Origin: an uncultured Actinomycetes bacterium
Lineage (GTDB): Bacteria > Actinomycetota > Thermoleophilia > UBA2241
Direction of reading: 5' to 3'
Length of the DNA: 34,822 nt
Assembly (NCBI GenBank): GCA_963755025.1
Contig: CAVWIH010000003.1
Span: 1-34,822, forward strand
The notes under the pieces are model-generated. The model did not search any database. It was not told the DNA's origin and was given only the letters and a program-made list of their open reading frames with translations. Below, in pieces: positions 3,690 through 34,822 of the stretch; position 1 is the stretch's first letter; the number at the start of each line of letters is the position of its first letter. Both the position numbers and the translations under genes were made by a program.

Positions 3690-3765
3690 TGGCAGGGCTG
3701 GAGGGACTCGAACCCCCGACCCCCGGTTTTGGAGACCGGTGCTCTACCAATTGAGCTACAGCCCT
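3690..3765 (-). tRNA. tRNA-Trp (CCA)
   Basis: AGGGCTGTAGCTCAATTGGTAGAGCACCGGTCTCCAAAACCGG...GGTTCGAGTCCCTCCAGCCCTGCCA; 76 nt, encoded CCA end. Confidence 0.97.
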
Positions 3766-4249: not shown

Positions 4250-5422
4250 GTGGACGACGACCGCAGCAGCGAGCAGACCGAGCCGGCCGCCGAAGGTCCG
4301 GTCACGAGCGGTCCGCCGCCCGACCCGGCGCAGGCGCCCGACGACCAGGGACAGGCGCCCGACGACCAGGGACGGCCCCCGGCGTGGCAGCCACCCGCCT
4401 GGCCGCCGGCGCCCGGAGGGCCGCCCGCGTGGTCGCCCCCGACTCAGCAGCCTTCCGCGTGGTCGCCGCCGCCGCCCGACGCGCTGCAGCCCTCCGCGTG
4501 GCCGCCGCCGCGCGACGCGCAGCAGCGGCCTCCGTGGCGACAGGCCGAGCAGCAGCCCGCGCGACAGGCACCCGCCTGGCCGCCGCCCGATGCTCGCCAG
4601 GCGGCCACCGCCCGACGGCCGGCGCAGCAGTACGGTGCGCCGCGCGTGGGCACGCCCGCGCCGCCGGCCGACGCGCAGACCTTCGGCGTCACCCCCGGCC
4701 TGCGACCCGGTCAGGTGCCCTGGCACGGGCGCGACGTGCTCTTCGCCGTGCTCATTGCCGCGGCGCCGATCGCCGCCCTCACCGTGGTGGGCACCATCTC
4801 GAGCGGGAGCGCGTCGGCCGCCAGCCAGACACCGACCGCCGCCTACGCCTTCGCGGCGATCGTCTCGACCGTGCTGGTCGACGGCTGGCTCGTCTTCTGG
4901 GCCTGGTTCTTCTCGCTGCGCAAGTACCGGCTCTCGCTTTCGAGCTACGGCTTTCGCGGCTTCGAAGAGACCAGCTCGTGGGCCGTGGCGGCGGCCGTCA
5001 TCGTGGGCGGCGTGCTGGCCACCACCGTGCTCGGCACGATCAGCGACTACGCCTACCGCAGGATCGTGGGCCCGGTGCCCAAGGAGAACGTCGTGACGAT
5101 CTTCCCCCACACCTCGGCCGGGCTCGTGCTGTTCATCGTGCTGGCGGTCGTCGTGGCGCCGCTCCTCGAAGAGACGTTCTTCCGCGGCTTCGTGTTTCAG
5201 GGGCTGGCGCGCTCGTGGGGACCGCTTGCCGGGGCGCTCACGTCGGCGCTGATCTTCGCCGCGTGGCACCAGCAGCTGTCGGTGCTCGTCCCGATCTTCG
5301 GTCTGGGGATCCTGCTGGCGGCCCTGTTCTACTGGACCAAGTCGATCTACGCGAACATCACCTTCCACGCCGCGTTCAACGCCCTCGGCATCATCGCCTG
5401 GTGGTACGTGACCAAGGGCTGA
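4250..5422 (+). CDS. CPBP (CAAX protease/Abi) family intramembrane metalloprotease with Pro/Gln/Trp-rich N-terminus
   Basis: APLLEETFFRG, IFAAWH and HAAFN motifs; multiple TM helices; GGGGAG RBS. Confidence 0.9.
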   Translation: MDDDRSSEQTEPAAEGPVTSGPPPDPAQAPDDQGQAPDDQGRPPAWQPPAWPPAPGGPPAWSPPTQQPSAWSPPPPDALQPSAWPPPRDAQQRPPWRQAEQQPARQAPAWPPPDARQAATARRPAQQYGAPRVGTPAPPADAQTFGVTPGLRPGQVPWHGRDVLFAVLIAAAPIAALTVVGTISSGSASAASQTPTAAYAFAAIVSTVLVDGWLVFWAWFFSLRKYRLSLSSYGFRGFEETSSWAVAAAVIVGGVLATTVLGTISDYAYRRIVGPVPKENVVTIFPHTSAGLVLFIVLAVVVAPLLEETFFRGFVFQGLARSWGPLAGALTSALIFAAWHQQLSVLVPIFGLGILLAALFYWTKSIYANITFHAAFNALGIIAWWYVTKG

Positions 5423-31637: not shown

Positions 31638-32350
31638 TCACGCCGGCGCCTCGCCCACGTGCAGCGCCATGGCGCCGAAGCCGAACAGGCGGTAGCGCAC
31701 GTGCGTGAGGCCGGCGGCGCTCATGATGGCCGCCAGCCCGTCGGCATTCGGGAACGACCGCACCGAGGCCGGCAGGTAGGCGTAGGCCTCGGCGTCGCCG
31801 GTGACGAGGGCGCCCATGGCGGGCACGACGCGCTCGAACCAGACGCGTGGAAGCGCCGCCCGGCGGCGCCGGCCGGCGTGGTCGCCTCGAGGCACACGAC
31901 CGGCGCTCCCGGCGCGGCCACGCGCACCATCTCGGCGAAGGCCTGCGCGAGGTCGGCCACGTTGCGCACGCCCCAGCCGACGGTGACCGCGCCGAAGCTT
32001 GAGTCGGCGAAGGGCAGCGCCAGCAGGTCGCCGTGCACGAACTCGACGGCGGGCGCCGCGTGGGCCGCCTTGGGGCGGGCGCGATCGAGCATGGCCTGCG
32101 AGAAGTCGAGGCCGGTGACCGCGGTGCCCGGGTAGCGCCGCGCCAGGGCGAGCGTCAGGTCGCCGGTGCCGCAGCAGGCGTCGAGGATGGGCTTACCGGG
32201 CAGCGGCGTGGCGGCGGCGGCAGCCGCGGCGCGCCAGCGGCGGTCGAGCCCGACCGTCATCAGCCGGTTCATGAGGTCGTAGTGCGGCACGATGCGGTCG
32301 AACATCGCCTCGATGCGGGCGGGGTCGCGAGCGGGCCGAGCGTCGCTCAT
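31638..32350 (-). CDS. menG: Demethylmenaquinone methyltransferase MenG/UbiE; frameshift near 31845
   Basis: MFDRIVPHYDLMN, LDACCGTGD, LPFADSSF, GVRNV, then AYAYLPASVRSFP in the next frame. Confidence 0.88.
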
Positions 32351-32956
32351 GTGCGCGCGGCCTTCCCAGGGCCGCGACAGGCGCTGCGCGAAACCCAGCG
32401 CCTGCAGCACCCGGTCGACGACGAAGTCGACCAGGTCGTCGAGGGTGCGCGGCAGCGAGTAGAAGCCGGGCATGGGCGCCACGATGACGGCGCCCGCGCG
32501 GCGCGCTTCGAGCAGGCGCGCGAGGTGGATCTCGGAGAGCGGCGTCTCGCGCGGCACGAGCACGAGCGGCCGGCCCTCTTTGAGGGCGACATCGCCGACG
32601 CGGTGGATGAGGTTGTCGGTGGTGCCGAGCGCGATGTGGGCGACCGTCGACATGGAGCACGGGCAGATGACGGCCGCGTCGGGGAAGTTGCTGCCGCTGG
32701 CCACCGGCGCCTCGAGGTCGCCGGGCGCGAAGACGCGGGCCTCGGCCTGGGCGGCAGCAAGGAAGGCGGCCGTGACACCGGCACGGTCGCGCACGTCGAG
32801 CTCGAGCTCGTGAGCCACGACGGCCACGCCGACCTCGGAGAGGCACAGCGTGAGCTCGCAGCCGGCCGCGGCCAGCACCTGCACCAGCCGCACGGCGTAG
32901 GGCGCGCCGCTGGCGCCGGTGACACCGACGAACAGACTGGCGGGCGGCTGCGTCAT
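32347..32956 (-). CDS. ubiX: Flavin prenyltransferase UbiX; reads in-frame into menG as assembled
   Basis: VGVTGASGAPY, ASGS, PCSMST, DVALKEGRPLVLVPRETPL, PMPGFY. Confidence 0.9.
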
Positions 32957-33026
32957 GAGAGCTCCTTGCTGGCCGGTGACAGTCCCGACGCCCTGCGGCG
33001 TCGGGGAAGCGCTGACAATGCGTCGA

Positions 33027-33068
33027 CCGACTACGTCGTCGCCGCTCAGGCGCGCGTGACTTCGCCGC
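33027..33068 (-). repeat. Third, diverged copy of the 42-bp element
   Basis: 36/42 identical to 7785-7826 by hand alignment. Confidence 0.8.
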
Positions 33069-33354
33069 GGGCCTGATGCCGATCCCTATCCTATCGCGCC
33101 TCCGACGGCGCCGTCCCCGTCGGCACGTGGAGGCATTGGACGCCGCACGTCGAGGCCTGCGGGTCCGTCGGCTGCGGCGGGGCCGGGGGCTCGGGCTCTC
33201 GCTTCGCGAAGCAGAGTACGGCATCTGCGGCTGCGCCGCAGAGAGCGCTCACGCTCAGAGTTCGCCCTCGTCCCCCGACCCCACCTGCGCCGACTCCCTC
33301 ATCCGTCGCGCAGCACACTTCCTAGACCCTCTCTGCAGAAGGGCGTAGGGTCCG

Positions 33355-33392
33355 GAAGGCAGTACGCAGACTGCAGAATCACTGTTAGGTGC
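33355..33392 (+). other. Putative attI-like / first cassette recombination point
   Basis: GTTAGGTGC at 33384-33392 is the exact reverse complement of GCACCTAAC at 33863-33871; no attC hairpin visible upstream. Confidence 0.5.
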
Positions 33393-33397
33393 ACACT

Positions 33398-33870
33398 GTG
33401 GCGTCCGAGAACAACAAGCGACCGCGGCGATCCCTTGCCCCGACCCTGAAGGCGCGCGGTTTCAGGAAGTCGGCCGCGACGTGGCGCAAGTACGGCAGCG
33501 ACGCCATCGTCGTCGTCAACCTGCAAGGCTCCAGTACGGTCCGTCCTTCTACCTGAACCTTGGTGTCTACTTCCGCGCCGTCGGCGCTCGGACGGACCCG
33601 CTCGCATACCACTGCCACATCCGGACTCGCTTGAGCAAGCTAGTGCCGACGGACAGCGTCTCGCTGAACTCCTTGACTTCGAGCAACCCCGTGCCAGATC
33701 ACGTCCGATTCGCGGAGCTCGAGAACCTCCTCGTGGACCACGCCTGCCTTGGCTTGAACTCGTCTCCACGCCCGAGGGGGCGCTCCAGTATGGCCGCTCG
33801 CTTCCCGCTGGATCGGCGTGGGTGACACGGGAGGGGGCGCAAGTTCCTTGGCCTGGCGCGAGGCACCTAA
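33398..33870 (+). pseudogene. Cassette 1: DUF4304-like protein, frameshifted (real decay or sequencing error)
   Basis: LAPTLKARGFRKSAATWRK..IVVVNLQGS / QYGPSFYLNLGVY..CHIRTRL; TAA stop falls inside the attC R'' box. Confidence 0.6.
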
Positions 33871-33966
33871 CACGCGCGTCAACCTGACAAACCGAGGCCC
33901 ACAGAGTGGAGTAGAGTCCGGCGTGGGCAGGGCCTCGCTTTGCAGGTCATGCCCAACACGTTAGCC
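33865..33966 (+). mobile_element. Integron attC site (102 bp)
   Basis: R'' ACCTAAC, R' GTTAGCC; inner arms ACCTG(A)C/GCAGGT with an extrahelical base, and CGAGGCCC/GGGCCTCG. Confidence 0.8.
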
Positions 33967-33987
33967 GGACTTGGAAGGCCGAGTTTT

Positions 33988-34698
33988 TTGACGGATAGGC
34001 ACACAGAGGACCAGCTCGCGGCGCGAACACCTGATGCCGTAGCTACCATCGCAAAGGCCGTTGCGGGCATGACCCCGGTCGTCGGTCCTCTCCTTGCTGA
34101 ACTGATCGGGACGATCGTTCCCGGACAGCGCTCCAGCCGTGTTGCCGAGTTCTGCGTTCAGCTTGACGCTCGCGTTTCGGAGCTCGAGAAGGCGAGCCTC
34201 CAATCGCAGCTCGAAGACCCGGAGTGTTTCAGCCTGGTGGAGGAGGCGCTATTGCAATCAGCTCAGGTCGTTTCCAGCAATCGCCGCGCGCAGATTGCCG
34301 AGCTTGTTGCCCGCAGCCTTACTCTCGGCGAGATGGAGTACGCCGAATCGGAGCACGTACTGGGCACTCTCCGCGAACTCAACGACGTTGAGGTCATCCG
34401 GCTAGGCTCGTATCTCCATCGATCCTACGGCCCAGACGAGTATCGGGACCGTCATAGCGAGGAGTTGGCGTCGGTGTTCGCCAATTACGCTTCACCTCAA
34501 CGCGAAAAGGACAAGTCCGCCCTGCAGCAGAGCTACGACCAACATCTCGAACGCCTGGGACTGCTACGAGTGCGCTACTCCGTCGATATGCAGACCAAGG
34601 CCCCCCGCTTCGACCCACGAACCGGAGCCCAGAAGGTGAGCGGCTACGAACTGACGCCTTTCGGCTCGCTGCTGTTGCGACAGATCGGCGTGGAGTGA
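33988..34698 (+). CDS. Cassette 2: hypothetical protein (about 236 aa)
   Basis: Open frame bounded by attC sites; GGAAGG RBS before TTG 33988; codon usage less GC-biased than host genes. Confidence 0.7.
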   Translation: MTDRHTEDQLAARTPDAVATIAKAVAGMTPVVGPLLAELIGTIVPGQRSSRVAEFCVQLDARVSELEKASLQSQLEDPECFSLVEEALLQSAQVVSSNRRAQIAELVARSLTLGEMEYAESEHVLGTLRELNDVEVIRLGSYLHRSYGPDEYRDRHSEELASVFANYASPQREKDKSALQQSYDQHLERLGLLRVRYSVDMQTKAPRFDPRTGAQKVSGYELTPFGSLLLRQIGVE

Positions 34699-34707
34699 AC
34701 GCAAGCA

Positions 34708-34795
34708 CGGCTTGTGGACAAGCATTTTCAGCAGACTCGTCGAGAGTGCCAAGAGCGGGCGCCTCGCTCGCACCTCAAATGCAGCGACGTTAGCG
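34708..34795 (+). mobile_element. Degenerate second attC site
   Basis: R' GTTAGCG at 34789; GCATTT/AAATGC arms; same 17-nt spacing from AC to ...GAC as attC1, but R'' reads CGGCTTGTGGAC instead of GGCTAAC. Confidence 0.55.
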
Positions 34796-34822
34796 CTACA
34801 GCGCGAGCCGCAGTTGTCTACC

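Follow-up and report, generated by a model that had tools for sequence, protein, structure and literature searches.

The last 1.5 kb of contig CAVWIH010000003.1 (34,822 nt; the window, which is the whole of contig C3 of genome G000) very probably form an integron cassette array with its own attI-like site and no adjacent integrase. This array is placed between ubiX and mqnP, within a futalosine-type menaquinone gene cluster, and can be classified as an attC-site cluster without an integron integrase (CALIN). G000 is a metagenome-assembled genome (MAG) of 39 contigs and 3.37 Mb (84% complete, 5% contamination). Because the MqnE protein encoded in the window is 76-81% identical to MqnE of MAGs labelled Thermoleophilia, the host is a soil-dwelling Thermoleophilia actinobacterium. 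An earlier note on this DNA, made from the sequence alone, had read the tail as an array of integron-type cassettes next to menaquinone genes on the chromosome of an actinobacterium. That proposal is supported by a match to an attC covariance model and by contigs of other runs that bridge the core genes and the array. The element is of a known kind (CALIN), in an under-reported lineage. Its features and those flanking it on the left are as follows.

33312..33384, plus strand: attI-like site, with cores AAGGGCGTA and AGAATCACT, the latter directly before G|TT
33385..33960, plus strand: cassette 1, a DUF4304 pseudogene (about 33389-33887) plus its attC
33865..33966, plus strand: attC1, intact; R'' 33865-33871 (ACCTAAC), R' 33960-33966 (GTTAGCC)
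33961..34789, plus strand: cassette 2, one intact open reading frame (ORF; 33988-34698), then attC2
34713..34795, plus strand: attC2, decayed; R' GTTAGCG (34789-34795) kept, R'' region GGCTTGTGGAC
34790..34822, plus strand: cassette 3 start (33 bases) of a toxin-antitoxin cassette (Unstab_antitox and ParE-like)
33166..33311, plus strand: hairpin-forming repeat of about 147 bp, left copy (BLAST: C12 90%, C20 83%)
Left of the array, all minus strand: mqnE, polyprenyl synthase, menG and ubiX

attC1 and the covariance model

The core-site coordinates proposed for cassette 1 are confirmed: GTTAGGTGC occupies 33384-33392, and 33863-33871 carry GCACCTAAC, its exact reverse complement. At the cassette ends, the inverted repeat measures 10 bp (33383-33392 with 33863-33872), and attC1 has an R'' that complements the first bases of the cassette it belongs to (10/10 bases), a rule also seen in G253 and G760. 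The 102-bp imperfect palindrome closing in GTTAGCC (33960-33966) is found at 33865-33966, as described earlier. Its bottom strand, which the earlier note had suggested folding, forms a single long, imperfect hairpin in which a spacer stays unpaired and a T bulges out of the R''-L'' arm.

Motif and fold statistics for the tail are weak when taken alone. Shuffles of the 1.5-kb tail give approximately seven nine-bp inverted-repeat pairs by chance, such that a 9-bp repeat is not significant by itself. Three GTTAG motifs occur on one strand where 0.89 are expected from local composition (a mild enrichment), and the plain fold energy of the attC1 element has a z-score of -2.0. Because of this weakness, the case had to rest on comparison with real attC sites.

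An attC covariance model, R1, was built from 40 sites of IntI-adjacent arrays in ten Actinomycetota genomes and one site of a Comamonas MAG. For its training, 20 kb were fetched around ten integron integrase (IntI) genes and the arrays were located with a motif-plus-hairpin scan; two sites resembling attC1 were excluded from the training alignment (A3). The R1 consensus (RNAalifold) is attC-like, with 15 pairs, 11 of which show compensatory changes. When the 34.8-kb window is searched with filters off, R1 matches 33865-33966 on the plus strand only and over the full model (35.4 bits; E-value: 5.7e-6), so the covariance-model check proposed in the earlier note came out in favor of attC1. The next-best match in the window scores 15.5 bits (E-value: 0.14), leaving attC1 as the sole significant one. 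As a control, R1 finds 67 sites in 203 kb of training loci, on one strand per locus; 26 of these lie outside the training set (25-65 bits). A further 56 sites are found in 79 kb of family loci. In other parts of G000 (low-GC regions and contig ends, 88.6 kb), nothing scores above 14.7 bits.

Sequence comparison also relates attC1 to attC sites of IntI-linked arrays. It resembles two attCs in G319 (alignment A2), two attCs in the Thermoleophilia-labelled MAG locus L166 and one in L182 (alignment A5), and it is 80% identical to one attC of G760. In L166, an IntI gene is followed by two R1-positive attCs. The two G319 sites (L111 5228-5326 and 1852-1953) have R1 scores of only 16.8 and 13.2 bits, indicating that R1 misses some genuine sites of the attC1 type. 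The R'/R'' chain rule, checked for 5228-5326 only, places that site in register within a bona fide array.

These comparisons bear on the reading of the tail as an ordinary genomic island with chance palindromes and motifs and no integron ancestry. The weak fold z-scores and the frequency of 9-mer inverted repeats by chance would fit such an island. It is contradicted by the R1 match, by the similarity of attC1 and attC2 to IntI-linked attCs and by the alignment of the attI-like site (see below), and we consider it highly improbable.

A strict RYYYAAC...GTTRRRY scan of the whole genome yields 42 pairs, none of them clustered, and misses attC1 because GTTAGCC breaks the strict consensus; the relaxed motif-plus-hairpin scan is too permissive to be used alone. 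A sequence-only nhmmer profile of the attC alignment has no match in the genome, attC1 included. A whole-genome R1 search scored 150 of 13009 candidates and gave no match; as the known attC1 was not recovered, this result is uninformative. No second copy of attC1 or attC2 is found in G000 by BLAST. An Rfam scan of 32000-34822 (E-value of at most 1) gives no match, Rfam being without any attC family.

The attI-like site and its locus

Upstream of cassette 1 lies a putative attI site that the earlier note overlooked; the array that it described stands, and the layout is extended by this site. The 72 bases before cassette 1 are 87-92% identical to sequences in three genomes of the same genus (G760, G515 and G473; DNA comparison), each of which again has the mqnE-ubiX genes and the repeat ahead of the site. 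Two further sequences align with the site: the DNA that comes immediately after the intI stop codon of a complete integron in G525 (same genus), and the leader of a different array, in G605. The cores AAGGGCGTA and AGAATCACT are shared by all six aligned sequences, which diverge right after GTT (alignment A7). Because the divergence is immediate, 33312-33384 behaves as an attI site, and by homology the array is likely to be headed by one; the crossover point is placed between G33384 and T33385. A reading of 33316-33392 as a decayed attC was rejected, as this stretch has no attC fold and is better explained as attI-like.

G000, G760, G515 and G473 share the ubiX locus, including mqnE-ubiX synteny, the repeat and the attI-like site. 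G760 and G515 hold other cassettes there, and the G473 contig ends soon after the site. No intI adjoins the array in G000, G760 or G515. In both G000 and G760 the toxin-antitoxin cassette comes last, after cassettes particular to the species. In G515 it comes first and has a complete attC, with further cassettes behind it.

attC2 and the third cassette

A second attC-like site ending in GTTAGCG (34789-34795) had been noted before. Its position and its homology to attC sites hold; it does not look functional. In alignment A6, attC2 is homologous end to end with eight attCs of G525, G770, G605, G515 and G760 (BLAST, 1.8e-17), and the window piece 34718-34800 matches attCs in the array after intI of G525. 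With R1, the homologues in G525 reach 37.1, 44.2 and 27.1 bits, and the folds of two have z-scores of -3.2 and -2.8. For attC2 itself there is no R1 match at an E-value of at most 10, and the fold is absent (z-scores of +0.75 in one test and -0.04 in another). Its R'' reads GGCTTGTGGAC where the relatives read ..CCTAAC; two L-box positions are changed and the L-box pairs are broken. It is conceivable that this R'' could be read as GGCT..AC with an insertion. Judged by its end-to-end homology, attC2 is classified as a decayed attC.

Cassette 3 begins at the window edge, as first proposed: the last 34 bases of the window match a cassette start in G760 and G515 (88-91% identity to L243 6176-6210 and L244 6591-6624). 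The cassette continues at C12:1-466, which is 89% identical to G760 (L243 6339-6804), and the gap between C3 and C12 is approximately 128 nt by G760 coordinates. It encodes a toxin-antitoxin pair with the conserved domain PF09720 (Unstab_antitox; E-value: 1e-15) and a ParE_toxin match below its cut-off (E-value: 0.0064). On C12, the ParE-like toxin has an internal stop and a shifted stretch. In G760 and G515, the attC of this cassette has the R'' CGCTAAC, the exact complement of the cassette start GTTAGCG. The third attC, on C12, has a mutated R'' remnant (CCGCCGAC vs CCGCTAAC in G760 and G515) and no R1 match. In a DNA search of 80 same-family genomes, three separate pieces of the tail recur in relatives.

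The similarity of attC2 and cassette 3 to sequences elsewhere argues against a lone stray cassette (SALIN) that had entered a GWT "attG" site before unrelated island genes, with the other GTTAG motifs arising by chance. Such a cassette would account for the single R1-positive attC and the weak GTTAG enrichment, and, according to the available text of bioRxiv 10.1101/2022.09.11.507474, cassettes do enter GWT sites of genomes and often occur in isolation. Against it, the upstream site is homologous to an attI beside intI, attC2 is a full-length homologue of real attCs, the bases after GTTAGCG begin a cassette that follows other sites in G760 and G515, and multi-cassette arrays occupy the same locus in relatives. 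We regard a stray cassette as improbable.

Cassette genes

Cassette 1 carries a DUF4304 ORF broken by at least two frameshifts, with Pfam DUF4304 matches on two frames. In G575, an intact homologue (71% nucleotide identity) comes second in its cassette, preceded by a BrnT-like ORF, and a frameshifted intI lies upstream; by tblastn against this homologue, the cassette 1 frames run 3 > 2 > 1. Contigs of the three runs X2, X3 and X4, from three studies, have 0 differences from the window within 33444-34117, so the frameshifts are not an assembly error. The last frame stops at a TGA (33885-33887) inside attC1. The stop codon is therefore not the TAA of GCACCTAAC, where the earlier note had placed it.

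The second cassette had been described as having a single ORF, and one intact ORF (33988-34698) is indeed present. It has a TTG start at 33988, set by alignment A1, with GGAAGG 10 nt upstream, and encodes 236 aa. Thirty homologues of this protein were found. The window protein matches Abi_alpha with an E-value of 0.028, and 5 of 28 family members match this domain (best E-value: 1.8e-8), suggesting that the protein is distantly Abi_alpha-like. The family is scarce in the phylum: it is found in 5 of 401 genomes sampled, the window genome included. A 45%-identical homologue is itself a cassette, behind an R1-positive attC in the Comamonas MAG L017. No PADLOC or NCBIfam match is found for the cassette-2 protein. 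No related loci of the window protein appear in the genome contigs searched or in two metagenome scans.

The Comamonas array (L017 7327-9370) has three cassettes, with one R1-positive attC and two degenerate ones, and the cassette-2 homologue is in the middle cassette. No integrase was recognised beside it, and the adjoining ORF is without an NCBIfam match. Other homologues lie outside cassettes, in settings that look like defence islands (L018 7968-8669 and L015 7931-8767). The L018 homologue, of a Spirosomataceae MAG, follows a 1102-aa gene beside an apparent tRNA gene (read by eye), and the L015 homologue, of an actinobacterial genome, overlaps a 624-aa gene.

For all three cassettes, a homologue occurs as a cassette in another genome (in G575, in the Comamonas MAG L017 and in G760/G515, respectively). 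The array in G000 is decaying: DUF4304 is frameshifted, the ParE-like toxin is broken, and attC2 and the third attC are eroded. Only attC1 and the Abi-alpha-like gene look intact.

Continuity of the junction

The 5% contamination of the MAG, the drop in G+C content at the junction and the end of the contig inside the array could all point to an assembly or binning artefact, in which low-GC cassette DNA of foreign origin became attached to an actinobacterial contig near position 33300. The region is tiled by contigs from four public runs of four studies. X1 record 3 (32894-33506) and X2 record 11 (32952-33512), from two studies, span ubiX, the repeats and the start of cassette 1. They carry the same eight differences from the window, so both derive from a related strain. 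AttC1 is spanned by X1 (33723-34541) and X3 (33471-34117) with 0 differences, and two run contigs extend 105 and 58 nt past the window end. Because contigs of two runs bridge the core genes into the array, the junction is not chimeric; continuity near 33000-33400, on which the earlier note had made its reading depend, is borne out. The same junction is also present in three same-genus genomes and is flanked by repeats native to G000. There is, in our view, very little chance that the array was created by assembly or binning.

Integrases in G000 and its relatives

The earlier note had suggested a genome search for an IntI with the I2 insertion, and no integron integrase was found in the assembled genome. 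No protein of G000 exceeds the cut-off of TIGR02249 (integron integrase); the best match scores 83 bits vs 265 and is without model positions 174-239, the IntI-specific middle. TIGR02249 is found over its cut-off in 23 of 401 genomes sampled from the phylum (among them G082 and G148, flagged as unpublished). Within a sample of 401 Thermoleophilia genomes, 53 have an IntI over the curated cut-off, many on long contigs. At an E-value of at most 1e-40, IntI matches occur in 44 of 79 same-family and 2 of 10 same-genus genomes. G473 has an IntI on another contig in addition to the ubiX-locus site. The earlier statement that integrons are rare in Actinobacteria is true of the literature; it does not apply to this lineage, given the counts for its class (53/401) and family (44/79).

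R1-positive arrays are found beside or near IntI in G525 (6 sites), G575 (13 sites), G446 and L166. Of 12 Thermoleophilia IntI loci with 1.5-kb flanks, 4 show an R1-positive attC; the other 8 are not counter-evidence because flanks of this length are too short. In all Actinomycetota loci inspected except G315, intI and the cassettes are co-oriented and the array follows the intI stop. G770, of the same family, has a large, sedentary-integron-like array (L242, C2:668000-686000) of 27 R1-positive attCs on one strand within 15.5 kb. In G575 (L247 2450-3499), an integron integrase split over two frames is followed by 13 R1-positive attCs, which suggests another integron of the family that is losing its integrase.

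The array might instead still be at work, fed and shuffled in trans by an integrase encoded in the unassembled 16% of the genome. In favor of this, attC1 and the attI-like site have stayed intact, as has each of the three GTT crossover triplets, and cassette content at the intI-less locus varies by species, with the newer cassettes on the attI side of the toxin-antitoxin cassette. The IntI counts for the genus and family, and the IntI that G473 has elsewhere, also agree with supply in trans. However, no IntI is found in the assembled genome, two of the three attCs are decayed, of the four genes in the cassettes two, DUF4304 and the ParE-like toxin, are broken, and the four metagenome runs show no alternative joints. 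An array working at present is possible but doubtful.

Proposed model and points against it

The proposed model for the origin of this array, which draws on the established integron mechanism, is as follows. An integron integrase, by acting on the attC of each cassette in its folded bottom-strand form, would have inserted the cassettes singly at G|TT in the attI-like site. This integrase may be encoded elsewhere in the genome, or an ancestor may have possessed it. The oldest cassette would be the toxin-antitoxin one at the far end, with the Abi-alpha-like and DUF4304 cassettes having come later. Species-specific cassettes precede the shared toxin-antitoxin cassette in both G000 and G760, which fits insertion at attI in trans or by an earlier IntI.

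The following points weigh against the reading of the tail as an integrase-less cassette array with its own attI-like site. R1 was built in this analysis, and its training sites were hand-picked from the motif-plus-hairpin scan. Only one attC of G000 passes R1, fewer than the two required by default for a CALIN in IntegronFinder (available text of PMC9024848). In attC2, the R'' does not complement the first bases of cassette 2. The join between C3 and C12 is based on synteny with G760 and G515 and not on reads. Excised or alternative cassette forms are not seen in contigs of the four runs; as contig coverage is patchy, this is not evidence of absence. Finally, because G000 is only 84% complete, an intI may exist in the missing part of the genome.

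A broader view is that this family of Thermoleophilia routinely carries "inverted integrase" sedentary chromosomal integrons, with their own attI and at least three attC families, and that the genus also keeps attI-headed, intI-less satellite arrays at a fixed site in the menaquinone cluster, still fed in trans. We consider the arguments for and against this view to be evenly balanced.

Flanking genes and repeats

The genes to the left of the array include mqnE (484.5 bits vs a cut-off of 434.55) and ubiX (171.5 bits vs 108.9), both identified by profile matches. The right flank, on C12, consists of an inverted copy of the 147-bp repeat followed by an MqnP/UbiA prenyltransferase gene. G+C content is 0.72-0.77 over the core genes and falls to 0.59-0.65 from about 33300 to the window end. 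In the window, ubiX and menG read as a single 411-aa ORF, and menG is frameshifted near its 3' end (about 31895). The contigs of all four runs are one base shorter than the window at 32356 or 32358, so the ubiX-menG fusion may be an assembly-specific indel.

The repeat at 33166-33311 is native to G000, with an inverted copy at the far end of the array (C12:491-637). Inverted pairs of this hairpin-forming repeat (approximately 130-147 bp) bracket the arrays in G000, G760 and G515. A second inverted pair is present on C20 (51302-51430 and 54153-54302), 2.7 kb apart, around DNA without attC matches. A shorter repeat of approximately 55-58 bp (window 33021-33075) is found on many G000 contigs, often as two to four tandem intergenic copies (for example, C14:176553-176727 and C7:10196-10482).

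The sole tRNA gene in the window is a distant tRNA-Trp gene (3690-3765, minus strand; tRNA scan) unrelated to the array, which is therefore not part of a tRNA-linked island. A promoter scan of the plus strand ahead of the cassettes finds no sigma-70-like promoter. In more distant Thermoleophilia MAGs (L029 to L037), the DNA upstream of ubiX has no useful match in G000.

Relation to known integrons

The CALIN category was reportedly defined with IntegronFinder by Cury et al. in 2016. In the available text of PMC9024848 and PMC8618304, CALINs are defined and are proposed to stem from intI loss or from service in trans. Like a CALIN, the window array has attC cassettes and co-oriented ORFs with no intI nearby. 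It differs in that it retains an attI-like site at its head, has only one R1-positive attC and occupies a genus-conserved locus in a Thermoleophilia actinobacterium. It differs from a complete integron in having no intI beside attI.

Treponema denticola is an example of an organism with an inverted-integrase integron. The complete integrons of the relatives (G525 L241, L166 and L112 to L114), to which the sites of the window array trace back, are similar, consisting of intI, attI and co-oriented cassettes; such integrons, with intI and cassettes on the same strand, are mentioned in the available text of PMC13323075. The window array is unlike these in having no intI, and G315 (L118) alone has the classical divergent layout.

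The array also shares features with sedentary chromosomal integrons of the Vibrio type. It is chromosomal, at a fixed locus, with variable cassettes and lineage-specific attC families, and it includes toxin-antitoxin and small single-gene defence-like cassettes, an Abi-alpha-related one among them. The part of bioRxiv 10.1101/2024.07.02.601686 that was available describes small defence cassettes in Vibrio-type integrons, likewise including an Abi-alpha-related one. In contrast to the tens to hundreds of cassettes of such integrons, the window array has three, with no intI and with signs of decay. Like the SALIN and attG insertions covered in the available text of bioRxiv 10.1101/2022.09.11.507474, it is cassette DNA outside a complete integron, but it has an attI homologue and several cassettes rather than one at a GWT site.

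The inverted repeats that bracket the arrays of G000, G760 and G515 recall a further system. Class 1 integrons can be bracketed by pairs of miniature inverted-repeat transposable elements (MITEs), or integron mobilisation units. Unlike these, the window array shows no sign of movement, the repeat also occurs elsewhere in G000, and the G605 array with the same attI-like leader has no repeat copy in approximately 300 nt upstream.

Significance

A survey of complete genomes lists no complete integron in Actinobacteria (PMC9024848) and a 2026 soil study speaks of their "virtual absence" in Actinomycetota (PMC13323075); a review places Actinobacteriota among the integron-bearing phyla (PMC8618304), each as far as the available text goes. 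No paper describing integrons in Thermoleophilia, its orders, Actinomycetota, Actinobacteriota or Acidimicrobiia was found in the literature searched, which did not extend to supplements. The cause of the actinobacterial integron gap is treated as an open question.

The window array is a small one in decay, without any resistance gene. It is a bona fide cassette array in a Thermoleophilia chromosome, and integrases with adjacent attC arrays are common in that family; the frequency of integrons in this actinobacterial family is a more interesting result than the array itself. If these findings hold, the supposed phylum-level barrier to integrons would be due, at least in part, to biased sampling of cultured genomes, recombination assays could draw on attI and attC sites from actinobacteria, and soil cassette metagenomes may have an unrecognised actinobacterial source. 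If the broader view set out above is correct, integrons would regularly contribute to genome plasticity in a soil lineage, high in GC and Gram-positive, that the literature searched regards as nearly without them.

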